64,000 bases of DNA from Bacteroidales bacterium (GCA_023229505.1 JALNZD010000001.1:130823-194822); one strand, 5' to 3'; positions 7,602 through 63,906 are shown, counted from the first letter of the stretch. Notes: a model not told the origin generated them from the sequence alone. Translations and numbers: made by a program.

Positions 7602-7650
7602 CACATTGAACCTTCAACTTTGCACTTTGAACTTTGCACTTTGAACTAAT
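7602..7650. repeat. Period-7 tandem word array (7 units)
   Basis: CACATTG AACCTTC AACTTTG CACTTTG AACTTTG CACTTTG AACTAAT. It ends 5 nt before the DUF58 ATG. Confidence 0.8.
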
Positions 7651-7655
7651 CGAAG

Positions 7656-8531
7656 ATGGAGACTGCTGAAATACTCAAAAAAGTAAGAAAGATAGAGATC
7701 AAGACACGGGGGTTGTCGCACCAGGTGTTCTCAGGTCATTATCATTCTGCTTTCAAGGGGAAAGGTATGACTTTCAGCGAAGTCCGCGAGTATCAGTATG
7801 GTGATGATATCAGGAGCATCGACTGGAATGTCACTGCAAGGTTCAACCATCCGTATGTCAAGATCTTCGATGAAGAAAGGGAACTGACCGTTATGCTTGT
7901 CATTGATGTCAGTGGTTCGAATGAATTTGGCACCCGGCAGCAGCTGAAAGAAGATCTGATGACGGAAATCGCCGCCGTTCTCGCCTTTTCAGCCATTCAA
8001 AACAACGACAAAGTCGGGGTGGTCTTTTTCAGCGACAGGGTTGAGAAATTCATCCCTCCCAAGAAGGGTAAATCGCATATCCTGAGGATTATCCGTGAGC
8101 TGATCGACTTTCAGCCGCAGAGCCAGCAAACCAATATTTCCGAAGGGCTGCGTTTTCTTTCGAATGCCATCAAGAAAAAATGCATTGCCTTCGTAATATC
8201 CGATTTTATGGATAAAGGCTTCGAGCAGGCCCTCAGGATTGCCAGCCGGAAACATGATATCGTGGCCGTCAGGGTTTTCGACAAACGTGAAACCGAAATA
8301 CCAAAAATGGGCATGGTGAATGTATTTAATAAGGAAACCGGCAAAGCTATGTGGATTGATACAAACGACCCGGGCCTGAGGAGTAACTACAGCAGCCATT
8401 GGAACCGCCATGACCAATCGTTGAACCTGCTCTTCAAGAGGCTTGGGGTTGATTCCGCCACAATCCCGACAGGCGAAAATTATGTTAAACCATTAATGAA
8501 CCTGTTTAAATTAAGAGAATCAAGGTTTTAG
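7656..8531 (+). CDS. DUF58 family protein (MoxR-associated, vWA-like)
   Basis: GMTFSEVREYQYGDDIRSIDWNVTAR is the DUF58 signature. The position after moxR is canonical. Confidence 0.85.
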   Translation: METAEILKKVRKIEIKTRGLSHQVFSGHYHSAFKGKGMTFSEVREYQYGDDIRSIDWNVTARFNHPYVKIFDEERELTVMLVIDVSGSNEFGTRQQLKEDLMTEIAAVLAFSAIQNNDKVGVVFFSDRVEKFIPPKKGKSHILRIIRELIDFQPQSQQTNISEGLRFLSNAIKKKCIAFVISDFMDKGFEQALRIASRKHDIVAVRVFDKRETEIPKMGMVNVFNKETGKAMWIDTNDPGLRSNYSSHWNRHDQSLNLLFKRLGVDSATIPTGENYVKPLMNLFKLRESRF

Positions 8532-8532
8532 G

Positions 8533-9525
8533 ATGATGGTGCAATGGAAATACATAATTATGCTTTTCATGTTTGCAGGGCTGACCTTCACCATGCAAGG
8601 CCAATATACCGGCGCAAACGCCAGGCTGGAAAAGGACAATTTACAGATCGGCGACCAGGTAACACTTGAGCTCACCGTCACAGTTCCTGCCGGGAGCCTT
8701 GTCCAATGGCCCATGCTGTTGGATACACTGGTAAGGAATATCGAAATCCTGAGAAAATCCGGACTCGATACTATTACATCTAACAAAGAACAGTTTACAC
8801 TGAAACAGAAACTTATCATAACCTCATTTGATTCCGGATCTTATATTATTCCACCGATTCCCTTTAAATATACCCAAAAAGGCGATACTGTCACTTATTA
8901 TACGCAGACATCGCCTGTAAATCTCGATGTACAAACCATCAAAACTGATCCTGCAAAGGATATCAAACCCATCAAGCCGCCCCTCGCTGCCCCGGTAACT
9001 TTTCGTGAGCTATTGCCCTGGATCGGCCTGGGGGTGATCATCCTAGCTCTTGCATTCCTGATTTATTTTTTTCTGAAGAAGCGAAAACAAAAAGTGCCTG
9101 TTTTTACATCACGGCTTAAGACAAGCATACCGCCTTATGAGGCCGCTATGGAAGCGCTGGAAAGCCTTCGGCTGAAAAAGCTATGGCAGGCAGGAAGGGT
9201 AAAAGAGTATTATTCAGAGATGACGGATATTGTCCGTGAATATATAGAACTGAGATTTCCGGTGAGGGCTCTTGAAATGACGACCAGTGAAATCGATGCC
9301 GCGCTGCGCCAGACTGATGTCAACAGCAGTGCGAGAGAAAAGTTGCATCAAACGCTTGTCCTGGCTGACCTGGTCAAGTTTGCCAAAGAACAGCCCTTAC
9401 CGTTGGAAAACGATCTCAGCTTTAGCCAAAGCGTGGATTTTGTAAGGGAAACCAGGCCACGTAAGGAAACTGAGCCCTTACAAGCTGAAAAGGCTGAAAA
9501 TGTTGAACAGAATATTATGAAATAA
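8533..9525 (+). CDS. Bat-operon membrane protein (BatD-like N-terminus, one central TM helix)
   Basis: Signal peptide, TM helix LPWIGLGVIILALAFLIYFF, and a cytosolic helical C-terminus. The stop overlaps the batA start (TAATG). Confidence 0.6.
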   Translation: MMVQWKYIIMLFMFAGLTFTMQGQYTGANARLEKDNLQIGDQVTLELTVTVPAGSLVQWPMLLDTLVRNIEILRKSGLDTITSNKEQFTLKQKLIITSFDSGSYIIPPIPFKYTQKGDTVTYYTQTSPVNLDVQTIKTDPAKDIKPIKPPLAAPVTFRELLPWIGLGVIILALAFLIYFFLKKRKQKVPVFTSRLKTSIPPYEAAMEALESLRLKKLWQAGRVKEYYSEMTDIVREYIELRFPVRALEMTTSEIDAALRQTDVNSSAREKLHQTLVLADLVKFAKEQPLPLENDLSFSQSVDFVRETRPRKETEPLQAEKAENVEQNIMK

Positions 9526-10520
9526 TGTTTTCGAATATTGAATTTGCCAATCCCGGATATTTATTCCTGCTCGTGCTGATGCCCCTGCTGGTGGCCTGGT
9601 ATTGGTTCAGGCGCGGAAAAAGCATCCCGACGGTGCAGGTATCCGCCACCGAGGTATTCGAGAACACTCCCAGGAGCATTCGCCATTACCTGTACCATGG
9701 CATGTTTCTCTTCCGGATTATCGCCGTTTCACTTCTGATCGTGGCTTTTGCCAGGCCCCAGACATCCCTGAAAAGGCAGAATGTCAGCATCGAAGGTATT
9801 GATATTGTGCTGGGACTGGATATCTCGGGCAGCATGCTCGCCCAGGACCTGAAACCAGACCGGCTGGAAGCTGCCAAAAAGGTGAGCCAGGACTTTTTTA
9901 CGGGCCGTCCGAATGACCGTATCGGCCTGGTTGTCTTTGCCGGGGAGGCTTTCACACAATGCCCGCTTACGACTGACCACGTAATCATTGAAGATATGCT
10001 GGATGATATCAAGAGCGGGATCATCCAGGACGGAACCGCCATTGGCGATGGTTTGGCCACTGCCATCAACCGGCTGAAAGAAAGCCAGGCTGTCAGTAAA
10101 GTCATCATCCTTCTGACCGATGGCCAGAACAATGCCGGATCTATTGCCCCGCTTTCGGCTGCAGAAATTGCAAAAATTTATGGTATCCGGATTTATACCA
10201 TCGGTGTCGGGACAATTGGCTATGCCCCTTATCCCGTACAGACCCCTTTTGGCACGCAATACCAGAATATGGAAGTTAAAATCGATGAGGACCTCCTGAA
10301 GAAAGTGGCCAATATGACTGATGGCAGGTACTTCAGGGCGACTGATAATACAAAACTCAAGGAAGTTTACCGGGAAATAGACCAACTGGAGAAATCCAAA
10401 ATAGATGTGACCGAATTCAGAAAAAAACACGAAGAATTTCTTAATCTGGCGATATTTGCGCTTATTTTACTGGCGCTGGAAATTTTATCAAGATTAACCT
10501 TATTCAGAAGTATACCCTGA
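9525..10520 (+). CDS. batA: vWA-domain aerotolerance protein BatA
   Basis: N-terminal TM helices and a vWA MIDAS motif (DISGSM), then LLTDGQNN and a C-terminal TM helix. TGATG overlap with batB. Confidence 0.85.
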   Translation: MFSNIEFANPGYLFLLVLMPLLVAWYWFRRGKSIPTVQVSATEVFENTPRSIRHYLYHGMFLFRIIAVSLLIVAFARPQTSLKRQNVSIEGIDIVLGLDISGSMLAQDLKPDRLEAAKKVSQDFFTGRPNDRIGLVVFAGEAFTQCPLTTDHVIIEDMLDDIKSGIIQDGTAIGDGLATAINRLKESQAVSKVIILLTDGQNNAGSIAPLSAAEIAKIYGIRIYTIGVGTIGYAPYPVQTPFGTQYQNMEVKIDEDLLKKVANMTDGRYFRATDNTKLKEVYREIDQLEKSKIDVTEFRKKHEEFLNLAIFALILLALEILSRLTLFRSIP

Positions 10521-11551
10521 TGTTCCGCTTTGAACACATAGAATACCTGTACGCCCTGCTGCTGATCCCCTTCTTCAGCTTGTTATTCATCCTTTACGGG
10601 ATTTGGAAGAAAAGGGCCATTAAAAGGTTCGGGGATCTGGATGTCATCGCCCAGCTTATGCCACTTTTTTCCGGCAGGAGGCTGGTGTTTAAATTTATCC
10701 TGACCATGCTCGCTTTTGCTTTCCTGATCATCGGGCTGGCCAATCCGCAGATAGGCTCCAAACTTGAAAAGATCCAGCGAAAAGGGGCTGACCTGGTCAT
10801 CGCGCTGGATGTATCAAACAGCATGCTATCACAGGATATCCGGCCAGACCGGCTAACCCGGGCCGTGCAGGGCATCTCCAAACTGGTTGACCGCCTTGAA
10901 GGCGACCGCATCGGCATTGTGGTCTTTGCAGGAAAGGCCTATGTGCAGCTCCCTATCACTACTGATTATTCAGCGGCAAAAATGTTTCTTTCGACAATTT
11001 CCACCCAGATGGTCCCTTCGCAGGGAACCGCTATCGGCGATGCTATCGATCTGTCAGTCGAATCTTTCAAAGCAGACGAAAGGAGCAAGGCAATCATCAT
11101 CATCACCGACGGAGAAAACCACGAAGGCAATGCTGTCGAATCCGCCCAGGCTGCCACCGCCAAAGGCATCAAAATTTTTACGATAGGAATGGGTTCCCCG
11201 GAAGGTTCACCTATACCTGTTTATGACTCCTACGGCAGGCAAACCGGCTATAAGACTGACCGGGAGGGACAGACCATCGTATCAAAACTTGACGAAACTA
11301 CGCTCCAGCAGATCGCTTCAGCCGGAAATGGTATCTATGTGAGGGCATCGACCGGGCAGGATGGCCTGACCAAAATTCTCGACGAAATAAATGCGTTGGA
11401 AAAGCAGGAAATTGAGACCAAGATGTTTTCTGAATATGAAGGCCGATTCCAATATTTCCTGGCGGTCAGCTTGCTATTGTTGATCATTGAATTTCTTATC
11501 CCGGAAAGAAAAAGTAAATGGGCAGACAAAATCAGACTATTTAACCGTTAA
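10520..11551 (+). CDS. batB: vWA-domain aerotolerance protein BatB
   Basis: ALDVSNSM MIDAS motif, ITDGENH, and flanking TM helices. Confidence 0.85.
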   Translation: MFRFEHIEYLYALLLIPFFSLLFILYGIWKKRAIKRFGDLDVIAQLMPLFSGRRLVFKFILTMLAFAFLIIGLANPQIGSKLEKIQRKGADLVIALDVSNSMLSQDIRPDRLTRAVQGISKLVDRLEGDRIGIVVFAGKAYVQLPITTDYSAAKMFLSTISTQMVPSQGTAIGDAIDLSVESFKADERSKAIIIITDGENHEGNAVESAQAATAKGIKIFTIGMGSPEGSPIPVYDSYGRQTGYKTDREGQTIVSKLDETTLQQIASAGNGIYVRASTGQDGLTKILDEINALEKQEIETKMFSEYEGRFQYFLAVSLLLLIIEFLIPERKSKWADKIRLFNR

Positions 11552-11559
11552 TAAGAGAA

Positions 11560-12318
11560 ATGAAAAATAAACGTTCCTATATATTTTTGCTTTTCATGAC
11601 CATGACTCTGCTCTCCTGGTCGCAACAGGAGAACCGGTATATACGGCAGGGGAATAAGCAATATGAAGATGGTGATTACAAAAAAGCCGAAATTGATTAT
11701 CTCAAATCCACCCAGTCGGGCAAAGCTTCGCACAAAGGTTTCTACAACCTGGGGGATGCCTGGTACATGCAGAAAAATTATCTGCAGGCTTCCGCTGCTT
11801 TCGACACGCTCCGGACATTTAAAATGGATGACGAAACCCGTTCCAAATCTTACTATAACCTGGGTAATTCCTTGTTAAAAGCAGCTCTCGACAGTGCACA
11901 GCTGGCCCAGCAGGTTCTCCCACCGGGCATTGAGGCTTACAAACAGTCTTTACGCCTGAATCCAGCGGATGCTGACGCCAAATACAACCTGGCCTATGCT
12001 CAGCGACTGCTTGATAAATCTCAGCAACAGCAACAAAAGCAGGATCAGCAAGACCAAAAGGACCAGCAACAGGATCAGAAAAAGCAAGATCAGCAGCAGA
12101 ACCAGGATCAACAAGATCAGCAGAAAGAGGACGATGCGAAGCAGGACCAGCAACAGCAGGATCAGCAGCAACAACAGGCCCAGCCCCAGCAGATATCCAA
12201 GGAAGATGCTGAACGGATACTGGAAGCATTAAAAAATGATGAAAAACAGACCCTGGAAAAGCTAAAAGAGGCAAAAATAAAAACGATAAGGGTTGTCAAA
12301 TCCGAAAAGGACTGGTAG
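11560..12318 (+). CDS. batC: TPR protein BatC with a Q/D/K-rich low-complexity tail
   Basis: TPR-like N-terminal half, then QQQQKQDQQDQKDQQQDQKKQDQQQNQDQQDQQKEDDAKQDQQQQDQQQQQAQPQQ. Confidence 0.75.
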   Translation: MKNKRSYIFLLFMTMTLLSWSQQENRYIRQGNKQYEDGDYKKAEIDYLKSTQSGKASHKGFYNLGDAWYMQKNYLQASAAFDTLRTFKMDDETRSKSYYNLGNSLLKAALDSAQLAQQVLPPGIEAYKQSLRLNPADADAKYNLAYAQRLLDKSQQQQQKQDQQDQKDQQQDQKKQDQQQNQDQQDQQKEDDAKQDQQQQDQQQQQAQPQQISKEDAERILEALKNDEKQTLEKLKEAKIKTIRVVKSEKDW

Positions 12319-12364
12319 AGTTTTTTATGAAAAAGAAACAACGAAATATCAGCACGGTCAAAAA

Positions 12365-14218
12365 ATGATAAGAATCCTCAGAATATTATTTGTTTTGGCT
12401 ATCCTGGAAGGGGTAACGGATGATATCCTTGGCCAGGCAGTTGAATTCACGGCTTCGGCAAAGAGCAGTGTCCAGGTTGGGGAACAATTAAGGGTGGTTT
12501 ATACGGTCAATAAACAGGTGGATCGTTTTGAAGGACCAGATTTTGAGGGGTTCAGCGTGCTGAGTGGTCCGAACCAGTCAACGAACCAGAGTTATCAGTT
12601 TATCAATGGTAAAGTCTCACAATCTTTCCAGGTTTCCTACACTTATTATCTACAGGCAACCAAAGAAGGCACTTTTAACATTAACCCAGCTAAAGTCACC
12701 ACTGAAGGAAAAACTTACGAATCCAATTCCCTGACAATCAATGTTTCTCAATCGGCCTCTTCCCAGACGCCTACTCAGCAGGGAAACCAGCGGCCTGCCC
12801 AGGCAAGGCAGGAAAGTGTCAATAAAAATGATATTTTTATCAAAGCAACGGTCGACCGGTCCCAGCCTTTCCAGGGCGAACAGGTAATCGTCACTTATAA
12901 AATCTACACAACCATACCGATCTCCCAGATCAATATCAGCAAGATCTCTTCTTTCCCCGGGTTTTGGAATAAAAGCCTGTTGAACGACAATGATCCTTTA
13001 AAACAATCAAATGAAGTAGTTAACGGGAAAGAGTATGTTGTAGCTGATCTGCGGAAAATCGCCCTGTATGCCCAGCGAAGCGGGGAGATCAAAATCGAAC
13101 CCATGGAGCTGCAATGTGTGGCGCAGGTCAAAGTCGAAAATTCACGAACCCGGGACCCTTTTTTCGACAGCTTTTTTAACGACCCTTTCTTTAACCGGAA
13201 TTTTCAAAATGTCGAACTTAAAGTGGAGTCCAATCCGCTGTCCATCAATGTAAAACCCTTACCTGCCAGCGGTAAGCCGCTGGATTTCAGCGGGGCCGTA
13301 GGGTCGTTCAATATTTCTTCGGAAATCGACCGGACTGAATTAAAATCAAATGAGCCCATAACATTAAAGTTTACCATATCAGGAAAAGGCAACCTTGAAC
13401 TGATCGAAGCCATGCCTCTGTCGTTTCCTCCTGATTTTGAAACCTACGATCCGAAGATCACCAATGATCTTACGAAAAATTCCAACGGTATCTCCGGCAG
13501 CATAACCTTTGAATACCTTATCATACCGCGCAATCCGGGAGAATTTCAAATCAAACCGGTCGAATTTTCATTTTTTGATCCTGTCAAACAATCTTACACT
13601 ACTCTTTCAACCCCCCTTTACAATATCAAAGTAAATAAAGGTGAGGATGAATCAAGCGGTATAACTTACAGTGGTGTAAGTCAGAAAAATATACAGTTCA
13701 TCGGATCCGACATCAGGCACATAAAGACGGGACATATCCAGCTTTATCGTATCAATTCATTTTTCATAGCATCATCATCTTTTATATTCTGGCTGATCAT
13801 CCCGGCGTTGCTTTTTATCACGATCATCATTCTATGGTCAAAAAATAAAAAGAGAAGCGGAAATATTGCCCTTGTAAGGAACAGGAAAGCCAATAAAGTC
13901 GCCAGGAAAAACCTTCAAAAAGCCGGTGAATACCTCCAAAGCAATTCGACCGGGGCATTTTTTGAAGAAATTTCCCGTGCATTATGGGGTTACATAAGTA
14001 ATAAGTTCAACATCCCGCTTTCTGATTTATCGATTGAAAGCGTCAATCAGCGGTTATCTGATAAAAGTATCAGTGAAGAAAGCATTCGTAAATTTACCGG
14101 AGTACTTGAAAATTGCGAATACGCCAGGTTTGCACCGGGCGATAAATCTGAGAAAATGCAAGGTATTTATAACGAGGCTCTTGAAGTTATCAGCAAAATT
14201 GAACAGGAATTGAAATAA
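12365..14218 (+). CDS. batD: BatD (oxygen-tolerance) protein
   Basis: The likely start is the ATG at 12365 (MIRILRILFVLAILEG signal). The track ORF begins with TTG inside batC. It has a large extracytoplasmic region, a TM helix (FIFWLIIPALLFITIIILW) and a cytosolic tail. Confidence 0.75.
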   Translation: MIRILRILFVLAILEGVTDDILGQAVEFTASAKSSVQVGEQLRVVYTVNKQVDRFEGPDFEGFSVLSGPNQSTNQSYQFINGKVSQSFQVSYTYYLQATKEGTFNINPAKVTTEGKTYESNSLTINVSQSASSQTPTQQGNQRPAQARQESVNKNDIFIKATVDRSQPFQGEQVIVTYKIYTTIPISQINISKISSFPGFWNKSLLNDNDPLKQSNEVVNGKEYVVADLRKIALYAQRSGEIKIEPMELQCVAQVKVENSRTRDPFFDSFFNDPFFNRNFQNVELKVESNPLSINVKPLPASGKPLDFSGAVGSFNISSEIDRTELKSNEPITLKFTISGKGNLELIEAMPLSFPPDFETYDPKITNDLTKNSNGISGSITFEYLIIPRNPGEFQIKPVEFSFFDPVKQSYTTLSTPLYNIKVNKGEDESSGITYSGVSQKNIQFIGSDIRHIKTGHIQLYRINSFFIASSSFIFWLIIPALLFITIIILWSKNKKRSGNIALVRNRKANKVARKNLQKAGEYLQSNSTGAFFEEISRALWGYISNKFNIPLSDLSIESVNQRLSDKSISEESIRKFTGVLENCEYARFAPGDKSEKMQGIYNEALEVISKIEQELK

Positions 14219-14227
14219 ATCGAATCC

Positions 14228-14989: not shown

Positions 14990-15153
14990 TATTTCATAAT
15001 AAATACTCTGATAATCAGTATAAAAGGTCGATAACGGAGCAAGTTGACCTCCTGCCGTTTACTGATTTTGCCTGACCGCTAACTGATTACGGTTTGAAAC
15101 TTATCTATTTAATTTTAAATTTGTAACATCGAACAGTACCCGGATTTTATCAA

Positions 15154-15161
15154 TATCTTTG
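15154..15161 (+). promoter_or_regulatory. -7 box TATCTTTG
   Basis: Matches TAnnTTTG but lies 104 nt upstream of the ATG at 15265, which implies a long leader. Confidence 0.3.
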
Positions 15162-15264
15162 TTAAAATTTTAACTATAGCAGATTTGAGTGTATATAAAA
15201 ATAGTGTAAATTGGGCGTCTGTTTCTGATAAGACGATATGTTGTAAAAATCAAATTCTATTTAT

Positions 15265-27303: not shown

Positions 27304-28350
27304 ATGTCTGCTGACCTCCCGGAAATGAATGAAGACCAGGAGGTGCTGGAAGAAAGCCAGGACCTTTACGAACATTATCGCTTTGTAGCCGATAAGGGAC
27401 AGGGGCTGCTGCGTATCGACAAATTCCTGATGCTCCGCATTGAAAATGCCACACGAAATAAGATCCAGCAAGCGGCCCATGCCGGCAACATACTGGTGAA
27501 CGGCCTTCCGGTCAAACCCAACTACCGGGTAAAACCGTTGGATGTGATCTCCATCGTTCTTTCACATCCTCCCAGGGAAATTGAGATCATCGCTGAAAAT
27601 ATCCCGGTGGAGATATTATACGAAGACAGCGACTTGCTGGTGGTTAACAAACAGGCAGGAATGGTCGTGCATCCGGCTTACGGGAATTATACGGGCACAC
27701 TGGTCAATGCCCTGGCTTTCCATCTCCAGGAGATCTCGCCGGACAAAGAACCTGGCCGGACCCCTTTCCTGGTTCACCGGATTGATAAGGACACCTCGGG
27801 GGTGATGATTGCAGCCAAGAACGAACTTGCCCAGGCCAGGCTGGCGGCACAGTTCTTTCATCACACGATCGACCGGCATTATCTTGCACTGGTCTGGGGT
27901 GATTTTGAAGATGATAAGGGCACCATTACCGGTCATATCGGGCGAAGCATCCGCGACCGCAAGGTTTTTGCCGTATTTTCAGATGGTAGCCAGGGCAGGC
28001 ATGCCGTGACACATTACACTGTTATCGAAAGATTCGGATATGTGACTTTGCTGGACTGCAAGCTCGAAACCGGCCGTACACACCAGATCCGGGTACATTT
28101 CCAGCATATCCGGCATCCCCTTTTTGGCGATGAAACTTATGGGGGCAATGTGATCCTGAAAGGCACCACCTTCACAAAATATAAGCAATTCGTGAATAAC
28201 TGCTTTGCGATCCTCCCACGCCAGGCCCTGCATGCACGCTTACTAGCCTTTATCCACCCCACTACCAAACAATGGATCCAGTTTGAGTCCGAACCGCCCG
28301 AAGATATGGCTACGGTGATTGAGAGGTGGAGGCGGTACAGGAAAGAATAA
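27304..28350 (+). CDS. rluD: RluA-family 23S rRNA pseudouridine synthase (RluD-like, with S4 domain)
   Basis: S4-like N-terminus (LLRIDKFL...), catalytic HRIDKDTSGVM, and GRTHQIRVH. Confidence 0.9.
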   Translation: MSADLPEMNEDQEVLEESQDLYEHYRFVADKGQGLLRIDKFLMLRIENATRNKIQQAAHAGNILVNGLPVKPNYRVKPLDVISIVLSHPPREIEIIAENIPVEILYEDSDLLVVNKQAGMVVHPAYGNYTGTLVNALAFHLQEISPDKEPGRTPFLVHRIDKDTSGVMIAAKNELAQARLAAQFFHHTIDRHYLALVWGDFEDDKGTITGHIGRSIRDRKVFAVFSDGSQGRHAVTHYTVIERFGYVTLLDCKLETGRTHQIRVHFQHIRHPLFGDETYGGNVILKGTTFTKYKQFVNNCFAILPRQALHARLLAFIHPTTKQWIQFESEPPEDMATVIERWRRYRKE

Positions 28351-28408
28351 TTCCAAATTCCAAATTCCAAATTCCAAATTGCTGACTGCTGACTGTTGAC
28401 TGCTGACT
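28351..28408. repeat. Two adjacent 4x heptamer arrays that fill the whole convergent spacer
   Basis: TTCCAAA x4 (28351-28378), then TT, then GCTGACT GCTGACT GTTGACT GCTGACT (28381-28408). Confidence 0.9.
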
Positions 28409-29190
28409 TAATTTCCTGCCCTCTTTGCTTCATTCCAGAAAGCATCCATTTCCTCCAGCGACATCTGGTGAAGGGCCTTGCCCGTGTTCCTGGCACCTTT
28501 CTCAACATATTGAAACCTCTTGATGAATTTTCTGTTAGTCCGTTCAAGGGCATCTTCAGGATTGATATCGATAAAACGGGCATAATTGACCAGAGCAAAT
28601 AACAGGTCGCCAAATTCCATCTCAAGCTTTTGCTTGTCAAAATCTTCTTCAGCACATTCGACTTCTCTTCTGAACTCGTGCATTTCCTCAACTACCTTAT
28701 CCCATACCTGCGAGATTTTATCCCAGTCGAAACCGACACCGCCGGCCTTTTCCTGGATGCGGTAAGCTTTAACCAGTGCAGGAAGTGAATGAGGAACACC
28801 CCCCAACACTGACTCACGGCCTTCTGTCATTTTGATTTTCTCCCAGTTGTCCCTGACCTCGCCTGCATTTTTCACCTGCACATTGCCGTATATATGAGGG
28901 TGCCGCCTGATCAGTTTCTCACATATCGAGTCAAGTACATCCCTGATATCAAACGCATTCTTTTCACTTCCAATTTTCGCGTAAAAAACGATATGCAGCA
29001 TCAGGTCGCCAAGTTCATTTTTGATTCCATCCGGGTCCTTTTCCATGATTGAATCTGACAGCTCATAAGTTTCCTCCAATGTCAGGTGCCGGAGGCTGTC
29101 GAAAGTCTGCTCACGATCCCAGGGGCATTTCTCCCTTAATTCATCCATAATATTGAGAAGGTTTGCAAAAGATTGTATCCGGGGATCCAT
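28408..29190 (-). CDS. mazG: MazG nucleoside triphosphate pyrophosphohydrolase
   Basis: The likely start is MDPRIQSFANLLNIMDELREKCPWDREQTF (ATG at 29190). It carries the two MazG EExxE/ELGDL repeats. The 71-codon upstream extension of the track ORF overlaps the divergent promoter region. Confidence 0.88.
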   Translation of the reverse strand: MDPRIQSFANLLNIMDELREKCPWDREQTFDSLRHLTLEETYELSDSIMEKDPDGIKNELGDLMLHIVFYAKIGSEKNAFDIRDVLDSICEKLIRRHPHIYGNVQVKNAGEVRDNWEKIKMTEGRESVLGGVPHSLPALVKAYRIQEKAGGVGFDWDKISQVWDKVVEEMHEFRREVECAEEDFDKQKLEMEFGDLLFALVNYARFIDINPEDALERTNRKFIKRFQYVEKGARNTGKALHQMSLEEMDAFWNEAKRAGN

Positions 29191-31247: not shown

Positions 31248-31254
31248 GTAGGCT

Positions 31255-31343
31255 GTTGACAGTTGACAGTTGACAGTTGGCAGGATTATTAAACTGCTTA
31301 CTTCTAACTGTCAACTGTCAACTGTCAACTGTCAACTGTCAAC
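31255..31343. repeat. Inverted heptamer arrays forming a long hairpin, likely a bidirectional terminator
   Basis: GTTGACA x3 plus GTTGGCA (31255-31282), a 26-nt spacer, then TGTCAAC x5 (31309-31343). It lies between convergent stops at 31247 and 31347. Confidence 0.8.
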
Positions 31344-31346
31344 TTC

Positions 31347-31982: not shown

Positions 31983-31990
31983 ACAATATT

Positions 31991-32053
31991 AATTTTAAGT
32001 TTTAAATTTTAAATTTTAAGTTAATTCTGTATTCTATATTCTGTCTTCTAATA
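31991..32053. repeat. Period-7 array (9 units) upstream of the peroxiredoxin gene
   Basis: AATTTTA AGTTTTA AATTTTA AATTTTA AGTTAAT TCTGTAT TCTATAT TCTGTCT TCTAATA. Confidence 0.75.
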
Positions 32054-32058
32054 AATTA

Positions 32059-32066
32059 CAAAGGTA
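32059..32066 (-). promoter_or_regulatory. -7 box (TACCTTTG on the minus strand) for the peroxiredoxin gene
   Basis: Plus-strand CAAAGGTA, 77 nt upstream of the ATG at 31982. Confidence 0.4.
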
Positions 32067-32092
32067 ATCCATTCCTCCAGATATTCAACAAC

Positions 32093-41621: not shown

Positions 41622-41666
41622 GGTTTATCTCAATTTTAAGTTAATAATTTGCTCTTTTAAAATCCA

Positions 41667-47084: not shown

Positions 47085-48161
47085 ATGTTCGATCATCTCA
47101 GAACCAAGGTAAGTCAGAACCTGTTTCTTAAGTTCAAACAACAGGAATCCAAAATACACGAAATCAGCTACTTATTTTGGGAGTGCACTTCAAGGTGCAA
47201 CCTGAATTGCCTGCATTGTGGCAGTGACTGCTCCAAAGACAACCATCATGCCGATATGCCAATGGAAGATTTCTTTAAGGCAATTGATACAATAAAGCAG
47301 GCTCGCTATCCTGTCACAGTCGTACTAACCGGTGGAGAACCATTATTAAGGAAAGATATTGAAACCTGTGGCAAAGAATTGAGAAGAAGAGGCTTCAGGT
47401 GGAGTATGGTTTCAAATGCCTATTTGTACAATGAAAATAAACACAATTCATTGCTTAATGCGGTTATGGGTGCATTGACTTTCAGCCTTGACGGCATGGA
47501 AGAAAATCATAACTGGTTGCGAAATTCAAAGACGATTTTTAAAAAGGTAGATAAAGCAATTGATCTGGCAGTCAGTTCTTCAAGATTGAATTTTGACATT
47601 GTAACCTGCGTCAACCAGCGGAATTTGAATGAACTGCCGGATATTTACGATTACTTAATTCGAAAAGGGGTGAAAGCATGGCGGTTATTCACCATTGCCC
47701 CTATTGGAAGGGCTGTCACGAATAAAGAATTGATGCTCAAACCCGGCCAGTTAAAACTATTATTGGATTTTATCGCAGGCAAAAGATCGGAAAAAGTAAT
47801 GGATATGAAATTCAGCTGCGAAGGCTATGTTGGTCATTATGAAAACCTGGTAAGGGATGGTTTTTTCTTTTGCAGGGCAGGGATAAATATTGGTTCTGTT
47901 TTAATTGACGGATCCATCTCTGCCTGCCCGAATATTGACAGAAGTTTTTCACAGGGGAATATTTATCATGATAATTTCTTTCATATATGGCAGACAGGAT
48001 TTCAGGATTTTCGCAACAGGGATTGGGCAAAGAAGGGTCGATGCAAAAACTGCAAGGATTTTAAATATTGCCAGGGTAACGGGCTTCATTTTTGGCATGG
48101 GGATAAAGAGAATGTGCTGGTTTGTCACAAAGAACAATTGGACAGTTGGACAGTTGGATAG
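47085..48161 (+). CDS. Radical SAM enzyme with a SPASM-like C-terminal Cys-rich domain
   Basis: CX3CX2C motif (CNLNCLHC), GGEPLL, and the C-terminal region CPNIDRS...CKNCKDFKYCQGNG. Confidence 0.85.
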   Translation: MFDHLRTKVSQNLFLKFKQQESKIHEISYLFWECTSRCNLNCLHCGSDCSKDNHHADMPMEDFFKAIDTIKQARYPVTVVLTGGEPLLRKDIETCGKELRRRGFRWSMVSNAYLYNENKHNSLLNAVMGALTFSLDGMEENHNWLRNSKTIFKKVDKAIDLAVSSSRLNFDIVTCVNQRNLNELPDIYDYLIRKGVKAWRLFTIAPIGRAVTNKELMLKPGQLKLLLDFIAGKRSEKVMDMKFSCEGYVGHYENLVRDGFFFCRAGINIGSVLIDGSISACPNIDRSFSQGNIYHDNFFHIWQTGFQDFRNRDWAKKGRCKNCKDFKYCQGNGLHFWHGDKENVLVCHKEQLDSWTVG

Positions 48162-48193
48162 TTGGACAATTTAACAATTTGACAATTTGACAA
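48138..48193. repeat. Period-8 tandem array (7 units) spanning the rSAM stop codon
   Basis: TTGGACAG TTGGACAG TTGGATAG TTGGACAA TTTAACAA TTTGACAA TTTGACAA. The stop TAG is at 48159-48161, inside unit 3. Confidence 0.85.
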
Positions 48194-48215
48194 TCATTCA
48201 AATCCCTTATATGCT

Positions 48216-50272: not shown

Positions 50273-50342
50273 GTTGGCAGTTATTGGTTATTGGTTACAG
50301 TCACACTTCACTTTTCACGCTTCACCTCTCACGTCTCATGAA
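50273..50342. repeat. Period-7 array (10 units, two word families)
   Basis: GTTGGCA GTTATTG GTTATTG GTTACAG | TCACACT TCACTTT TCACGCT TCACCTC TCACGTC TCATGAA. Confidence 0.85.
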
Positions 50343-52544: not shown

Positions 52545-52554
52545 AATTGTCAAA

Positions 52555-54579: not shown

Positions 54580-54585
54580 ATACGA

Positions 54586-55150: not shown

Positions 55151-55200
55151 CAATTCAAAACCAAAGCCCTCCATTCGGGCTGAAAAATGTCTGTGTTTTT

Positions 55201-57258: not shown

Positions 57259-57343
57259 GGCTTAGGGCCTATCTAAGGAGAATTTAAATGCCCCAGGCTT
57301 TGGGATTATATTCCTACTTTTACACATCAAATTTCAAAGATTC

Positions 57344-58516: not shown

Positions 58517-59300
58517 CCGCTATATAGACTACCTGCGGATCTCGGTGACCGACCGTTGCAACCTGCGATGCATGTATTGCATGCCGGCAGAAGGGATACA
58601 GTTGCTGAAACATGAGGACATTCTCAGTTTTGATGAAATAACTGAAGTTGCCCGTATCGCTGTGGAAATGGGTGTCCGGAAAATCCGGCTGACGGGCGGT
58701 GAGCCATTGGTGCGCCGTGGCATCACCGACCTGGTGAAGATGATCGCCGGGATCGAAGGGATTGAGGACCTTTCGATGACAACCAACGGGATCTTACTGG
58801 ATAAATTTGCCATCCCTCTCAAAGAAGCCGGTCTGCACCGGATCAACGTCAGTCTCGATACGCTCGACCCGGTCAGATATCAGCATATCACCCGTGGCGG
58901 ATCATTGGAAAATGTGCTTGAAGGATTAAGGAAAGCAAGTGAAGCAGACCTTACCCCGATCAAGATCAATTGCGTAGTCGGGGAACTGACAGATGAAGAA
59001 GATGCCATTCAGATGAAACGATTTGCGGAAGAAAATAATTACCAGGTGAGGTTCATTCGTCAAATGGACCTGGCAGTAGGAGAATTCTATGTTGTTGAAG
59101 GAGGAGATGGGGGCAACTGCCGCTTATGCAACCGGCTGCGCCTGACTTCCAACGGGATGGTCAAACCCTGTCTTTTCAATGCAACGGGATTCAATGTCAG
59201 GGAACTTGGTGCAAGGGAAGCGATTCTTAAGGCCGTGGACAACAAACCCAGGTGCGGAACGTTTAACCGGGAAGAGGAGTTTTACAGGATCGGGGGATGA
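58500..59300 (+). CDS. moaA: GTP 3',8-cyclase MoaA (compact 266-aa form)
   Basis: LRISVTDRCNLRCMYCMP (CX3CX2C), a second cluster CRLCNRLRLTSNGMVKPC, and a C-terminal GG. It overlaps moeA by 17 nt. Confidence 0.88.
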   Translation: MYDRFDRYIDYLRISVTDRCNLRCMYCMPAEGIQLLKHEDILSFDEITEVARIAVEMGVRKIRLTGGEPLVRRGITDLVKMIAGIEGIEDLSMTTNGILLDKFAIPLKEAGLHRINVSLDTLDPVRYQHITRGGSLENVLEGLRKASEADLTPIKINCVVGELTDEEDAIQMKRFAEENNYQVRFIRQMDLAVGEFYVVEGGDGGNCRLCNRLRLTSNGMVKPCLFNATGFNVRELGAREAILKAVDNKPRCGTFNREEEFYRIGG

Positions 59301-59303
59301 GAA

Positions 59304-59373
59304 CAGTTCTCAGTTCCCAGTTCCCTGTCAACAGTCTGAAATTTGAAATTTGAAACTTGAAACCAGAAACTTA
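59304..59373. repeat. Period-7 array (10 units) filling the moaA-moaC spacer
   Basis: CAGTTCT CAGTTCC CAGTTCC CTGTCAA CAGTCTG AAATTTG AAATTTG AAACTTG AAACCAG AAACTTA. Confidence 0.9.
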
Positions 59374-59375
59374 AG

Positions 59376-59828
59376 ATGAACGAACTATCCCATGTTGATG
59401 AAGGTGGCAAAGCGCGAATGGTCGATGTCAGCCACAAAAAAGATCAGCTCAGGATTGCAAAAGCCTCAGGTCATATCCGGATGGACCCCGGAACGATCAG
59501 GCTCATCAGGGAAAACCAGGTCAAGAAAGGGGATGTGCTCACTGTTGCCCAGATTGCAGGGATACAGGCAGGGAAGAAGACCAGCGAACTGATTCCGCTC
59601 TGCCATCCGCTTCCCATCACAAAAATTGAGGTTCTGACCGATCTGCAGGAGAATGGGGTGACGGTCACGGCCGAAGCCCGCTGCGTTGGCCAGACCGGCG
59701 TGGAAATGGAAGCGCTCACCGCGGTTTCAGTAGCTTTGCTGACCATTTATGACATGTGTAAAGCGGTGGATAAAGGGATGGTGATAAGTGAAGTCAAGCT
59801 GATGGAAAAGAGCAAGACAGACATTTAG
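59376..59828 (+). CDS. moaC: Cyclic pyranopterin monophosphate synthase MoaC
   Basis: MVDVSHK, IPLCHPL, TGVEMEALTAVSVALLTIYDMCKA. Confidence 0.92.
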   Translation: MNELSHVDEGGKARMVDVSHKKDQLRIAKASGHIRMDPGTIRLIRENQVKKGDVLTVAQIAGIQAGKKTSELIPLCHPLPITKIEVLTDLQENGVTVTAEARCVGQTGVEMEALTAVSVALLTIYDMCKAVDKGMVISEVKLMEKSKTDI

Positions 59829-59830
59829 GA

Positions 59831-59865
59831 AATTGAAAGTTGAAAGTTGAAAATTGAAAATTCAA
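59831..59865. repeat. Period-7 array (5 units) downstream of moaC
   Basis: AATTGAA AGTTGAA AGTTGAA AATTGAA AATTCAA. Confidence 0.85.
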
Positions 59866-59880
59866 AAGCCACCCTTACCG

Positions 59881-61857
59881 ATGCGCTGGATGCTCCTTCT
59901 TCTCCTCTTCTCCTCTTCCCTGAGCCTATTTTCCCAGGTAAACACAGAGTATTTCATGACCGTGGGGCGGAATGAGCTGTCCAAGGGCAATTACGCGGAT
60001 GCAATCAATAAATTCAATACCGTCGTCCGTTTTGATAAAGATAATTTTGAAGCCTATTTTCTGAGGGGAATTGCTAAATACAACCTCGGCGATTTCATAG
60101 GTGCGGAAAATGATTTCTCTCGTACCCTCGAACTGCATCCCCTGTTTGTCGTCGCCTGGCATTACAGGGGATTGGTCAGGGATAACCTGCAGGATTATTA
60201 TAAAGCATTGCAGGACCTCGACCGGGCCATTTCACTTGAGCCTTATGATCCTGACCTGCTCATCAGCCGGGGGACAGTTAAGATTCACATGGGCAGTTAC
60301 TTATGGTCGCTCATTGACCTGGATTCGGCCATAAGGATCGACCCTAAAAAACCGCTGGCATATATGAACCGTGCAGTGGCAAGGACTTCCCTTAAAGATT
60401 ACGATGGCGCACTCAAGGACTGTAACAAGGCCATACAACTGGATCCTTACGATGACGGAGCTTATCTCCGACGCGGGGTAATCCGGTATGATACAAAAGA
60501 TTTTACCGGTGCGGTTGAAGATTTTCAATACGCCATCAAACTTAATCCTGATAATCCCTATACCTGGTTTAACCGGGCCATGTCCCGTTATCACAGCAGC
60601 GATACACTCGGCGCAATGGAGGATTATTCACGGGTCATTGAACTGGATCCTTACAATGCATTGTCGTTTTATAACAGAGCCCTTCTAAAATCCCAGCTTA
60701 ACGACCTGTATGGTGCCCTCGATGATTATAACAAAGTTTTATTGCTGAATCCGGATAACATCTACACTTACTATAACAGGGCTATAATTTTTCACATGTT
60801 GGAGGATTACCGGGCGGCGATTGCTGACTATACCAGGTCCATCGAACTTTTTCCGGATTTCGCCGGCGCTTACCTGAACAGGTCGGAAGCTAAGAAGTCG
60901 CTCAAAGATGAAAAGGGCGCCTATAAAGATTACCAGAAAGCCATTGAAATCATTGATGCAGTGAAGACATACGGATATGACAGCCTGACCGTCAAGCAAT
61001 TTGCCGATTCGGCCTATTTTAACAAGATCATGGAATTTGAGGCAGATTTTGTGGCTGTGAAACTGGATAATGTTACTCCGGATAAGTCTGTCGACCTCGA
61101 GCTGGCTTTCATGGTGCAATTTGCGCTGGAAGACCAGATGATCTTCGACCAAAGCCGGACAGGTTACGCTTTCCATGAACTTAAAGAATTGAATGAAAAA
61201 AATACCGGCGGAGTACAGTTTGTTATTTCCAATGACCATGTTGAACTGGGCCTGGAACAGGCATACCAGCGGTTGATACTTACCGACAGCATGCTGAGCC
61301 ACGATCCTTCTTCCGCGCAGGCATACTTCTTAAAAGGGGTCATTAACAGCATGGTTCAGAATTACAATACAGCCCTGCAGGACTATGAAAAGTCGCTCCA
61401 GCTGGACACGGAACAGCCGCTTGCCTATTTAAACCGTGGTTATGTTTTGTTCGAAATGGCGGAAAGGGAATTTGTGGGGAACAAATTCTCCGGTCCGGTT
61501 ACCATTACCTGGGAAGGGGCCGAAAAGGAAACGCAGAAAGATGTCCCTCTTTCACCCGACTACCAGCTGGCTATGCTGGATTATGACAAAGTAGTTAAAA
61601 TGCAACCTGAAAATGCTTTCGGATATTTTAACCGGGCTAATGTGAAGGTCCGGTTGAAGGATTATTCCGGTGCCATCCAGGATTTCAGCAGGGCTATTGA
61701 AAGGGAGCCAGGGCTTGCTGAAGCTTACTTTAACCGGGCGCTGACCCTCATTTTCCTGAATGATACCCGTTCGGCCTGCCGGGACCTCAGCCAGGCCGGG
61801 GAACTGGGCCTGGAGCAGGCCTACAGGGTCATCAAACAGTATTGTAATACACCATAA
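59881..61857 (+). CDS. Secreted multi-TPR protein
   Basis: The likely start is MRWMLLLLLFSSSLSLFSQ (ATG at 59881). The track's TTG start lies inside the heptamer array. There are more than 12 TPR units (AxxDxxxAIxLxPxxxxAYxNRG). Confidence 0.75.
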   Translation: MRWMLLLLLFSSSLSLFSQVNTEYFMTVGRNELSKGNYADAINKFNTVVRFDKDNFEAYFLRGIAKYNLGDFIGAENDFSRTLELHPLFVVAWHYRGLVRDNLQDYYKALQDLDRAISLEPYDPDLLISRGTVKIHMGSYLWSLIDLDSAIRIDPKKPLAYMNRAVARTSLKDYDGALKDCNKAIQLDPYDDGAYLRRGVIRYDTKDFTGAVEDFQYAIKLNPDNPYTWFNRAMSRYHSSDTLGAMEDYSRVIELDPYNALSFYNRALLKSQLNDLYGALDDYNKVLLLNPDNIYTYYNRAIIFHMLEDYRAAIADYTRSIELFPDFAGAYLNRSEAKKSLKDEKGAYKDYQKAIEIIDAVKTYGYDSLTVKQFADSAYFNKIMEFEADFVAVKLDNVTPDKSVDLELAFMVQFALEDQMIFDQSRTGYAFHELKELNEKNTGGVQFVISNDHVELGLEQAYQRLILTDSMLSHDPSSAQAYFLKGVINSMVQNYNTALQDYEKSLQLDTEQPLAYLNRGYVLFEMAEREFVGNKFSGPVTITWEGAEKETQKDVPLSPDYQLAMLDYDKVVKMQPENAFGYFNRANVKVRLKDYSGAIQDFSRAIEREPGLAEAYFNRALTLIFLNDTRSACRDLSQAGELGLEQAYRVIKQYCNTP

Positions 61858-61869
61858 TGCTTTGATATT

Positions 61870-62805
61870 ATGTCAAAAGAAATTAAAGTCTTATCCGTCA
61901 ATATCTCCGAAAAAAAAGGGACCATCAAACAACCGGTTGATTTCATCGAACTGGACGAACTGGGCGTAAAACAGGATGCCCATGCCGGCAATTGGCACCG
62001 GCAGGTCAGCCTGCTGGCCAAAGAGAGTGTCGATAAATTCTCTTCCGCTGCCGGCAGGGAAATCCGCTTTGGTGAATTCGCTGAAAATATCACGACAGAC
62101 GGCATCATCCTCTATGAAACACATCCGTTCGACAGGTTCATTATCGGTGAAGCAGAGCTTGAAGTGACGCAGATCGGCAAGGAATGCCATGGTGATAATT
62201 GTGCTATCTACCGTGAAGTTGGCAATTGTATCATGCCAAAAGAAGGGATTTTCTGCCGGGTACTCCGGCCGGGGAAAGTTAAAGCGGGTGATACGATCAC
62301 CTTCACCCCGAGGATTTACAGGCTAATGGTAATCACGCTAAGTGACCGGGCCAGCCAGGGAATTTATGAAGATAAAAGCGGCCCCCGGGTTATAGCCCTC
62401 ATGGAAGATTTTTTCAAAAAACTCAATTGGCAAAGCCAAATCAAACATCATATTATTCCCGACGATGATAAAAGTCTGCAAAACCTTCTGAAAGATGCTA
62501 TTGCCGGTCAGTTTGATTTTGTTATCACTACCGGTGGAACCGGTATCGGGCCAAGAGATATCACCCCGGAGGTGGTGCGATCAGTAATAGAAAAAGAAAT
62601 TCCGGGAATCATGGAGATGATCAGGATGAAGTACGGCCAGGAGAAACCCAATGCGCTGCTAAGCCGCAGCATGGCCGGAGTTGCCGGGAAGACTATCATC
62701 TATGTTTTGCCGGGCAGTGTAAAAGCCGTGAACGAATACATGGCAGAGATAACCAAGACGATAAAGCATACACTGTATATGCTGCATGGACTGGATGCGC
62801 ATTGA
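61870..62805 (+). CDS. MOSC domain fused to MogA/MoaB-type molybdopterin adenylyltransferase
   Basis: The N-terminal ~150 aa are MOSC-like (GVKQDAHAGNWHRQVSLL...EVTQIGKECH). The C-terminal half has MogA motifs (ITLSDRAS, ITTGGTGIGPRDITPE, LPGSVKA). Confidence 0.8.
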   Translation: MSKEIKVLSVNISEKKGTIKQPVDFIELDELGVKQDAHAGNWHRQVSLLAKESVDKFSSAAGREIRFGEFAENITTDGIILYETHPFDRFIIGEAELEVTQIGKECHGDNCAIYREVGNCIMPKEGIFCRVLRPGKVKAGDTITFTPRIYRLMVITLSDRASQGIYEDKSGPRVIALMEDFFKKLNWQSQIKHHIIPDDDKSLQNLLKDAIAGQFDFVITTGGTGIGPRDITPEVVRSVIEKEIPGIMEMIRMKYGQEKPNALLSRSMAGVAGKTIIYVLPGSVKAVNEYMAEITKTIKHTLYMLHGLDAH

Positions 62806-62917
62806 TTCCAGGTTCCAACCTCAATTTCACATCAACTAAAGGGGAGTTCTATAAATTAAATCATTGTTATTCAAATAATTATGTGTATATTTGCCAATAA
62901 TTTAATACGAAAACACG

Positions 62918-63864
62918 ATGTCATCACAAGTGTATAAAACAAAGGGCGAAAAAGGATTATTTGACGAGCAATATACCATTGAACGTTTGTCGGCAATTGG
63001 CAATCCTTTAGAGAAGATAAGCAATGTTATTGATTTTGAGGCTTTTCGCAGCACATTAGAATCAAAACTGTTAAATACAGAAAAGAAAAACAATGCAGGA
63101 GCAAAACCATTTGATGTAGTGATGATGTTTAAAATCTTGATATTACAACGCTATTATGGACTTGGAGATACACAGGTTGAATATCAGATAAACGATAGAT
63201 TAAGTTTTAAAAAGTTTTTGGGATTGCAGTCTGGCGATAAAGTTCCTGATGAAAAAACCGTTTGGGCATTTAGAGAAAACCTAACAAATAGTGGAGTTGT
63301 AGAATTATTGTTCAGTCAGTTTATACAATATTTAGATGATAAAAACCTGATATTCAATATAAAAAAAGGCACAAAGATATTGATGCCCGATGGACAAAGA
63401 AAAATGGCGAGAAATATTACGGGCATAAAAATCATGCAAAAGCAGATTCCAAAAGCAAATTCATCAACACGTATGTAGTTACAGATGCTTCGGTGCATGA
63501 CTCACAGGCTTTAGATGGTTTGCTGGAAAAAAGCGACAAAGGGCAACCATTATATGCAGACAGTGCTTATACTGGCGAAAAGCAGAAGAAAGCAATTAAA
63601 AAGCATAAACTTAAAAATAAAGCTCACGAAAAAGGATATAGAGGCAAACCATTGACTGATAAGCAAAAAGCGAAAAACAAGATAAAATTTAAAACAAGAG
63701 CAAGAGTAGAACACGTATTCGGCTTTATGGAGCAGAGCATGAACGGATTGGTTGTGAAATCTGTAGGAATAGTAAGAGCAACTGGTATAATCGGGCTGAT
63801 AAATCTCACATACAATCTCTTTAGATTTGAACAAGTCCAAAGACTGAATTTATGTAAGGTGTAA
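62918..63864 (+). mobile_element. IS5-family DDE transposase, disrupted (two frames; likely internal deletion)
   Basis: ORF1 (62918-63478) carries the N-terminal helix-rich domain. The -1 frame, open from 63343, reads YKKRHKDIDARWTKKNGEKYYGHKNHAKADSKSKFINTYVVTDASVHDSQ...YADSAYTG...RARVEHVFG. The segment that normally holds the first catalytic Asp appears to be missing. Confidence 0.75.
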
Positions 63865-63870
63865 TATCCT

Positions 63871-63906
63871 GTTAGTTAGTTAGTTAGTTAGTTAATTAGT
63901 TAGTTG
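63871..63906. repeat. (GTTA)n / (TTAG)n microsatellite-like array
   Basis: GTTAGTTAGTTAGTTAGTTAGTTAATTAGTTAGTTG, starting 6 nt after the transposase stop. Confidence 0.85.

Follow-up and report, generated by a model that had tools for sequence, protein, structure and literature searches.

The heptanucleotide STRR repeats of Calothrix and Nostoc, described since 1990, are built from the words CCCCAGT, TTGGTCA, and CAACAGT. A comparable architecture is found in a 64,000-nucleotide stretch of DNA from a Bacteroidales bacterium (JALNZD010000001.1, 130823-194822), the whole of which is referred to below as the window. Several of its intergenic spacers consist of seven-nucleotide words repeated head to tail, and nearly every array uses a different word. 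These arrays are probably (at about 65%) hypermutable heptanucleotide microsatellites of the long simple sequence repeat (LSSR) class, which has units of 5-11 nt; slippage or recombination would generate them, and selection against frameshifts and against the disruption of promoters would determine where they persist.

An excess of heptanucleotide simple sequence repeats (SSRs) in prokaryotes was reported by Mrazek et al. 2007, as summarised in PMC4679880 and PMC4692102. Arrays of GGGAATC in Xanthomonas and of GGGGA(C/T)T in Nostoc are about 90% intergenic and lie nearer to the end of the upstream open reading frame (ORF) than to the next start (Rehm et al. 2015, PMC4692102). Few of these heptamers are found in divergent spacers, some form inverted pairs, and their length varies extensively between close relatives or species (PMC4692102). 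MacGregor 2015 described intergenic TAACTGA direct repeats in Beggiatoaceae, Cyanobacteria, and five Bacteroidetes. They are frequently located a short distance ahead of a start codon, and in Gramella and Aequorivita the spacers that contain them also include further heptamer words (PMC4679880). The original prediction, which was made from the window sequence alone and held that nothing equivalent is described for Bacteroidota, was mistaken on this point. In Haemophilus influenzae, the 5' untranslated region of the adhesin gene hmw contains (ATCTTTC)n with 11-63 units, an array that has been shown to affect expression and to depend on RNase III (PMC12721329).

Period-7 arrays in the window

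Tandem Repeats Finder (TRF) was applied to the whole 64-kb window, arrays being counted at a score of at least 40. The gene map combines ORFs with gene calls taken from identical public contigs. Eight to nine period-7 arrays are found, compared with 0.01 per window in each of two null models, order-3 Markov simulations and shuffles of 100-nt blocks; the excess over the shuffles is about 1000-fold. Lag-7 autocorrelation is significant (z 4.2-9.9) in seven of the 33 spacers of at least 35 nt, while one further spacer has a period of 8 and another contains (GTTA)n. Both measures confirm that period-7 tandem spacers recur across the window, as had been predicted. A weaker array predicted at 41632-41666 has to be dropped, as the locus (41622-41666) is not periodic (lag-7 z = 0.3). 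The arrays have 3-8 units and lengths of 18-61 nt, and none of the four divergent spacers of the window contains one. They carry no strand and are located as follows (z7 is the lag-7 z of the spacer).

7595-7647: AACTTTG/CACTTTG, period 7/14, about 7.6 units (TRF; z7 = 5.7), 33 nt past the MoxR stop and 8 nt short of the DUF58 start (7656)
28349-28380: (AATTCCA)4.6, perfect (TRF), beginning within the TAA stop of an rluD-like gene
28380-28408: (TGCTGAC)4.1 (TRF), joined to the 28349 array by a chimeric unit and ending at the convergent mazG stop
31255-31283: (GTTGACA)4.1 (TRF), left arm of an inverted array pair in the convergent DUF2807/peroxiredoxin spacer
31284-31305: loop that separates the two arms, with its orientation reversed in a strain of 98.8% identity
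31306-31344: (AACTGTC)5.6, perfect (TRF), reverse complement of the left arm, ending 2 nt before the peroxiredoxin stop
31991-32019: (AATTTTA)4.1 (TRF), 8 nt upstream of the peroxiredoxin start (minus strand)
32024-32050: (ATTCTGT)3.7 (TRF), abutting the (AATTTTA) array
48134-48194: period-8 array of ACAGTTGG and then ACAATTTG, 7.6 units (TRF; best lag 8, at 0.63), ending 16 nt ahead of the M1 peptidase start
50280-50333: (GTTATTG)2.6 (50280-50297) and then about five drifting TCACNNT units (50301-50333), without filler (TRF; z7 = 6.5), downstream of the M1 peptidase stop
59304-59372: (CAGTTCC)3.1 (59304-59325), two degenerate units, and (TGAAAYY)5.1 (59337-59372) (TRF; z7 = 8.7), occupying the whole 75-nt moaA-moaC spacer
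59830-59867: (AAATTGA)5.4 (TRF; z7 = 6.3), 1 nt past the moaC stop and 13 nt before the next start
63871-63905: (GTTA)8.8, a tetranucleotide array (TRF), 6 nt past an IS5-like transposase remnant

How are the arrays placed relative to stop codons? A start 0-5 nt past a stop, as originally described, applies to about half of the loci (28349, 31255, 59304, 59830, and 63871), but not to 7595 (33 nt) or 50280 (about 20 nt), and the array at 48134 overlaps the last nine codons and the stop of the upstream gene. This gene encodes a radical-SAM protein; its final nine codons and TAG stop lie inside the period-8 array (48134-48161), which thus sets the C-terminus of the protein.

Units drift along the arrays, and abutting arrays change word through chimeric transition units. 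Adjacent arrays were said to stay in phase; this is true only in the sense that they abut without filler by way of chimeric units, for example AATTCCA followed by AATTGCT and GACTGCT.

Host and independent assemblies

Genes in the window encode type IX secretion (T9SS) sorting domains. The nearest genomes are uncultured Bacteroidales and Lentimicrobiaceae metagenome-assembled genomes (MAGs), with a peroxiredoxin identity of at most 89%. The host is an uncultured Bacteroidales, and not a heterocystous cyanobacterium. The same organism was retrieved by exact-protein look-ups from ENA, JGI, and Logan assemblies. Contigs of the window's own strain match it at 99.8-100% identity, and each array that they cover is the same base for base; the array at 7595-7647, for example, is the same in four independent contigs.

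Could the arrays be artefacts of assembly or sequencing? Several short-read contigs do stop inside perfect arrays (L086 at 31316, L088 at 31319, L095 at 7646, and L096 at 7644), and the heptamer arrays thus fragment short-read assemblies of the host organism. However, arrays of 18-61 nt fit inside a typical short read (assumed to be about 150 nt), they are identical in contigs from the three recorded sources, and the alleles of a second strain are coherent over seven contigs. Independent assemblies with the same arrays leave an artefact, which had been named at the outset as one of two findings that would overturn the prediction, with a negligible probability.

Period, placement, and words across relatives

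A survey set of 1.34 Mb comprises the window and, from relatives, 80 loci each about 20 kb long. Far more intergenic arrays have a period of 7 than any other period in this set: 54 of the 65 period-7 arrays are intergenic, although only about 10% of the DNA lies between genes (p = 2e-42), and the 11 'coding' cases are mostly spurious ORFs within long arrays. The next is period 8, with 11 intergenic arrays and one coding. There are no arrays with periods of 5 or 6 in the 1.34 Mb, and periods of 12, 15, and 21 are located mainly in coding DNA. At least one array, with other words and up to 36 units, is present in 26 of the 80 loci from relatives. Arrays are densest in convergent spacers (0.80 per kb of spacer), followed by co-directional (0.41) and divergent spacers (0.18; convergent versus divergent, p = 9e-4). 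The comparison of intergenic with coding DNA and of gene orientations, which had been proposed as a check, thus reveals a strong intergenic excess with convergent spacers at its peak. In 16 of the 65 arrays, perfection is 95% or higher, an indication of recent expansion.

A broader control consists of moaC-containing metagenome contigs with a GC content of 27-74%, the best MoaC match being 69% identical among the matches listed. Among periods that are not multiples of 3, these contigs likewise peak at period 7. The number of arrays per 100 kb is 14 in the window, 4.4 in the Bacteroidales relatives, and 2.8 in the control contigs.

The words themselves are arbitrary. When rotation and strand are collapsed, there are 57 distinct words among the 65 arrays, with a composition near that of the intergenic background. 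No k-mer shared among the 57 words convincingly survives multiple testing; the sole 3-mer or 4-mer signal is GAC/GTC (p = 4e-4, uncorrected). A TTG(A/G)/CAA theme had been proposed, but CAA/TTG occurs in 20 of the 57 words where 16.3 are expected (p = 0.17). CAGT and TTTG were also considered as word motifs and are not significant in the same 3-mer and 4-mer enrichment. A purine bias of the arrays on the sense strand was likewise rejected (19:10, p = 0.14). The proposal that each word is private to its locus does not hold strictly, as similar words come back in the window: TGAAATT and TGAAAAT lie on either side of moaC, and GTTGACA is similar to GTTGGACA.

Array turnover between strains and in orthologous spacers

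The comparison between strains is the most telling part of the analysis. Seven contigs (L083, L084, L087, and L089-L092) represent a second strain type, which shares 98.8% identity with the window across 13.6 kb. Differing columns amount to 0.75% in coding DNA and about 1.5% in spacers without arrays, and reach about 30% in the two spacers with arrays. The spacer at 31248-31346 is 99 nt long in the window and 78 nt in all seven contigs, a change of -21 nt (3 x 7). In addition, window positions 31275-31314 (40 nt) are present as the exact reverse complement in the L083-type allele, where the loop core occurs in reverse complement only. The loop that lies between the two arms, (GTTGACA)n and (AACTGTC)n, is thus inverted through a crossover within the arrays, and its orientation follows the strain type. 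In the spacer at 31983-32092, the L083 type has about two fewer AATTTTA units, leaving about two in the array at 31991-32019, and about two more units of the drifted second word.

Whole arrays may be present in one strain and absent from another. The spacer at 28351-28407 is 57 nt long and all array in the window, versus 7 nt (GTTCCAA) in L085, which is 99.98% identical elsewhere. When L085 (13540-13620) is aligned with window positions 28340-28420, about six substitutions are found clustered in the immediate flanks of the missing arrays. The L083-type strain has (GACTGCC)2.5 beside the mazG stop. In L083 (13500-14100), synteny with the window is lost at 28390, inside the array, and a BACON-domain gene is found there instead of rluD; arrays may mark rearrangement points in MAGs. 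The comparison of orthologous spacers between strains, another of the checks proposed, therefore uncovers turnover of units and words in multiples of 7 nt, as well as gain or loss of whole arrays. No further strain variants were found at the arrays at 7595, 48134, 50280, and 59304, for which all contigs recovered belong to the window's own strain.

Over longer distances, the moaA-moaC junction (window 59301-59375; L101-L120) is informative. Most distant bacteria have a junction of 0-6 nt. Relatives whose MoaC is the most similar among the matches listed have one of 40-140 nt, often with a period of 7 or 8; the arrays thus account for the extra length, and an operon junction that was ancestrally tight can be extended by tandem arrays. 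The orthologous spacer between the OEP and peroxiredoxin genes is periodic in 2-4 of 24 distant relatives, with unrelated words, and conservation of an array at this site was rejected.

Origin of the arrays

How have the arrays arisen? The hypermutable microsatellite model is favoured because the period is independent of sequence, coding DNA is avoided (apart from periods that are multiples of 3), many arrays are perfect, units drift and abutting arrays are joined by chimeric units, lengths change in multiples of 7 nt, arrays are present or absent between strains at 99.98% identity, and inverted arms have recombined. We infer from these patterns the molecular mechanism (slippage or recombination), the near-neutrality of the arrays, and the reason for the preference for 7 nt.

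An array would start with the tandem duplication of a short word in non-coding DNA. The number of units would then grow and shrink by slipped-strand mispairing and by unequal or intramolecular recombination, while re-amplification of point-mutant units would give rise to drifting words and to abutting arrays of different words. Because units of 7 nt disrupt the reading frame, selection would purge arrays from coding DNA. Arrays are also rare in divergent promoter spacers; the places left for them to accumulate would be convergent spacers, the DNA past stop codons, and operon junctions, the last of which they would have lengthened. Units that happen to be copied in inverted orientation would form a long hairpin, the arms of which could recombine and flip the loop.

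Several observations do not sit easily with this model. Simple slippage leaves the preference for a period of 7 (and then 8) without 5 and 6 unaccounted for. Of the array ends, 32% are no more than 10 nt from a stop codon, versus 14% when arrays are placed at random in the same spacers (p = 3e-4); the same comparison gives no bias of the survey arrays towards start codons. Word pairs within one mismatch of each other amount to 13% within genomes and 3.1% between genomes, to which composition may contribute. In one relative (L007), the same 14-mer is found in two spacers with unrelated flanks (2188-2229 and 11491-11526, inverted and 9 kb apart), and in another (L013) AACCAGT arrays are located on both sides of one gene (379-433 and 1057-1309, with 8 and 36 units). 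Local slippage alone is insufficient to explain such repeated words. The units GAAACT, GAAACC, and AGAAAC just upstream of the moaC ATG are common to the window and L101, whose MoaC is 69% identical; these shared moaC-proximal units are the best sign of constraint found, although they provide only a hint of it. The spacer at 31983-32092 is exactly 110 nt long in both strain alleles despite opposite changes in unit number. Finally, copy-number change of heptamer SSRs in H. influenzae requires transcription and RNase III, and not replication slippage alone (PMC12721329).

The preference for 7 nt, the closeness to stops, the sharing of words within genomes, and the conservation at moaC leave some room for a regulatory or RNA-level role, and for an expansion that is coupled to transcription or RNA processing. 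According to the first possibility, the arrays would be selected RNA elements, serving either as unstructured spacers of tunable length or as multivalent binding sites (for S1, Csp, or CsrA-like proteins), which would set translation initiation or mRNA stability in a phylum without Shine-Dalgarno pairing. There is a precedent in the proposal made by MacGregor 2015 for TAACTGA repeats (PMC4679880). Several arrays end 3-13 nt from a start codon (array end and start at 7647/7656, 59372/59376, 59867/59881, and 31991/31982), the words near starts are A/T-rich, and direct arrays fold worse than shuffles. The recurrence of arrays at the moaA-moaC junction in the nearest relatives among the matches listed, the units in common with L101, and the equal length of the 110-nt spacer in two alleles are also consistent with such a role. 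By contrast, 57 words in 65 arrays leave no common motif, arrays are densest in convergent spacers, where no start follows, and they abut stops more often than starts. Moreover, two arrays are entirely missing in one strain (L085), and there is no strand bias relative to transcription. A role in RNA is, on balance, unlikely.

The second possibility is a sequence-independent process, tied to transcription or RNA processing, that builds heptamer arrays preferentially at the 3' ends of genes, much as the copy number of the hmw heptamer in H. influenzae changes through transcription and RNase III; the arrays might then be kept by selection as evolvable spacers or hairpins that set operon-junction spacing and expression. 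This would fit the abutment to stops, the moaC-proximal units kept across MoaC proteins that are 69% identical, and the equal spacer length of the two alleles. Taken together as one scheme, it appears rather unlikely.

Inverted arrays and predicted folding

The inverted pair at 31255-31344 is the only array spacer with a strong predicted fold. Its stem of about 29 bp has predicted energies of -56.3 and -49.2 kcal/mol on the two strands, with z about -9 to -10 (-9.8 for -56.3), and it lies between two convergent stop codons. For spacers with direct arrays, the predicted fold is not better than that of shuffled sequence and in most cases a little poorer (z +0.9 to +1.3). A weaker hairpin is predicted just upstream of the 7595 array; a degenerate array unit forms its 3' arm, and the complement of that unit its 5' arm.

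7568-7604, plus strand: predicted hairpin GTGAAAAGT...ACTTTTCAC with a 9-bp stem

Inverted array pairs (31255-31344 and, weakly, 7568-7604) might be functional bidirectional terminators, or stabilisers of the 3' ends of convergent genes, that happen to be made of repeat units. The strength of the 31255-31344 stem and its position exactly between two stops argue for this, as do the retention of a shorter hairpin in the L083-type strain and the presence of a second inverted pair in L021. However, the stem has no U-tract on either strand and the terminator scan did not report it, the other convergent array spacer (28351-28407) has no hairpin, and between strains the arms differ by 21 nt and the loop is flipped without visible constraint. 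A functional hairpin is thus improbable. The terminator scan found no terminator-like site at any of the arrays. With no T-run at the 31255-31344 stem and no stem at the other arrays, simple terminators do not explain the pattern, as the original prediction had maintained.

The word GTTGACA could be read as part of a sigma-70 promoter; this reading was rejected, as the only strong match sits inside the hairpin between two 3' ends. Bacteroidota are not known to use the sigma-70 consensus.

Contingency loci and mobile elements

Might changes in copy number switch or grade the expression of adjacent genes? Contingency loci of this kind include the (ATCTTTC)n array of H. influenzae hmw, which offers a precedent (PMC12721329), and SSRs in promoter spacers. 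Copy number does differ between co-occurring strains, and some of the arrays are in likely 5' leaders. However, the neighbouring genes have housekeeping functions (moaA/moaC, peroxiredoxin, rluD, mazG, and the MoxR/DUF58/BatA-BatD cluster) and are not surface or restriction-modification genes. The majority of arrays follow stop codons, and divergent promoter spacers are the poorest in arrays. With arrays after stops or at junctions of housekeeping genes, contingency loci are a very unlikely explanation.

The exclusion of other repeat classes by the original prediction has stood up. The units are 7-8 nt long and without spacers, and no cas domains are present among the annotated genes, so the arrays are not CRISPR. 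Nor are they REP or MITE elements, given that words differ by locus, there is only one strong palindromic pair, and Rfam gives no match in the window. A broader version of the mobile-element hypothesis regards the arrays as footprints or remnants of small mobile elements, such as target-site duplications, MITE-like hairpins, or IVS-like cassettes bracketed by inverted arrays. In its favour, a PF05635 four-helix-bundle gene just outside the window is bracketed by inverted decamer arrays, (GTTA)n adjoins an IS5-like remnant, one word is found at unrelated loci in L007, and synteny breaks at an array. Against it, nearly every word is different, terminal inverted repeats and shared flanks were not found, and 3-36 units are too many for single target-site duplications. 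The drift of units and the abutting changes of word point to amplification in situ, and descent from mobile elements is highly improbable.

About 6 kb of DNA to the left of window position 1 was recovered. It includes the PF05635 gene (L181 5948-6505), which encodes a 139-aa four-helix-bundle protein of the '23S rRNA IVS protein' family and is located between the RND and OEP genes. The flanking decamer arrays are inverted copies of one word, (AAATAGAAAT)11.8 (10.8 in L182) and (CATGTATTTC)3.7. Together, the gene and its arrays look like an IVS-like cassette with tandem-repeat stems. The adjacent RND-pump gene (L181 4388-4599, L182 5017-5290) contains an in-frame 21-nt repeat encoding the peptide NTIEIDG; the copy number is 3.3 in one assembly and 6.3 in a second, the two being otherwise identical. 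About 100 nt beyond this repeat, a related word forms an inverted decamer array.

Other repeats in the window

The (GTTA)8.8 array at 63871-63905 belongs to another class of repeat and is only loosely connected with the period-7 arrays. The neighbouring IS5-like transposase (62918-63905 together with the array) is split into DUF772 and DDE_Tnp_1 (Pfam) ORFs, and no left inverted repeat is detectable around the transposase and (GTTA)n; for both reasons, the transposase is considered to be a remnant. The array can be read as (TTAG)n, which resembles the YTAR target of IS5-group elements.

In-frame coding repeats also occur in the window. A CAG/CAA-rich tract with periods of 9-45 (12038-12192) is located at the 3' end of a TPR gene in the MoxR/DUF58/BatA-BatD cluster, and a period-15 repeat (1421-1497) is found in a minus-strand ORF. 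Both are ordinary low-complexity coding sequence, in keeping with the rule that coding repeats have periods that are multiples of 3.

Comparison with known systems

The nearest parallels to the flipped loop are Bacteroidales invertons and small inversions of hairpin loops in non-coding DNA; its likeness to an inverton is only superficial. As in an inverton, a segment flanked by inverted repeats (31275-31314) is found in both orientations in natural populations. Unlike an inverton, the flipped segment is only 22-40 nt long, lies between two 3' ends, has no adjacent recombinase gene, and has an orientation that co-varies with strain.

The hmw SSR of H. influenzae resembles the arrays of the window in being an intergenic heptamer array of variable copy number; it is transcribed and can join an RNA hairpin (PMC12721329). 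In contrast to hmw, the arrays of the window have 3-8 units, are located near housekeeping genes, and are known from sequence alone. The TAACTGA system also consists of intergenic heptamer direct repeats and includes Bacteroidetes (PMC4679880). It differs from the present arrays, which have no single dominant word and lean towards the stop and not the start; the window contains eight single occurrences of TAACTGA and no dimers.

The heptamers of Xanthomonas and Nostoc are closer in their behaviour, as they share the intergenic site, the proximity to the upstream ORF end, the inverted pairs, and the variation in length (PMC4692102). However, each of these genomes uses one G-rich, quadruplex-prone word throughout, whereas the words described here are arbitrary, mostly A/T-rich, and predicted to be unstructured. 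No tandem dimers of GGGAATC or GGGGATT are present in the window.

The original prediction had named the cyanobacterial STRR family as the nearest analogue. The comparison is apt insofar as both consist of tandem heptanucleotides that are almost exclusively intergenic, with several words per genome; by their words and their host, the arrays of the window are not members of the family. STRR has a few fixed words at many loci, while the window and its relatives have 57 words in 65 arrays and a Bacteroidales host. Tandem dimers of the three STRR words (STRR1-3) do not occur in the window.

Two co-occurring strain types, at 98.8% and 99.98% identity, differ at the arrays and make rates, spectra of unit number, birth and loss of arrays, and arm-mediated inversions measurable from public reads. 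The value of the locus thus lies in natural history, in a practical caveat for assembly, and in a tractable natural system for heptamer-array dynamics, and not in a new kind of system. The closest match is the LSSR class of Mrazek et al. 2007. As far as the summaries of that work describe it, this class shares with the window over-long tandem 7-nt units, a non-coding bias for units that are not multiples of 3, a scattered phylogeny, and a proposed origin by slippage. The arrays have units within the range of 5-11 nt beyond chance expectation, are restricted to non-coding DNA, and are polymorphic in copy number between close strains. The LSSRs are a class and not a homologous family, and the same summaries show no Bacteroidales lineage of the kind found in the window.

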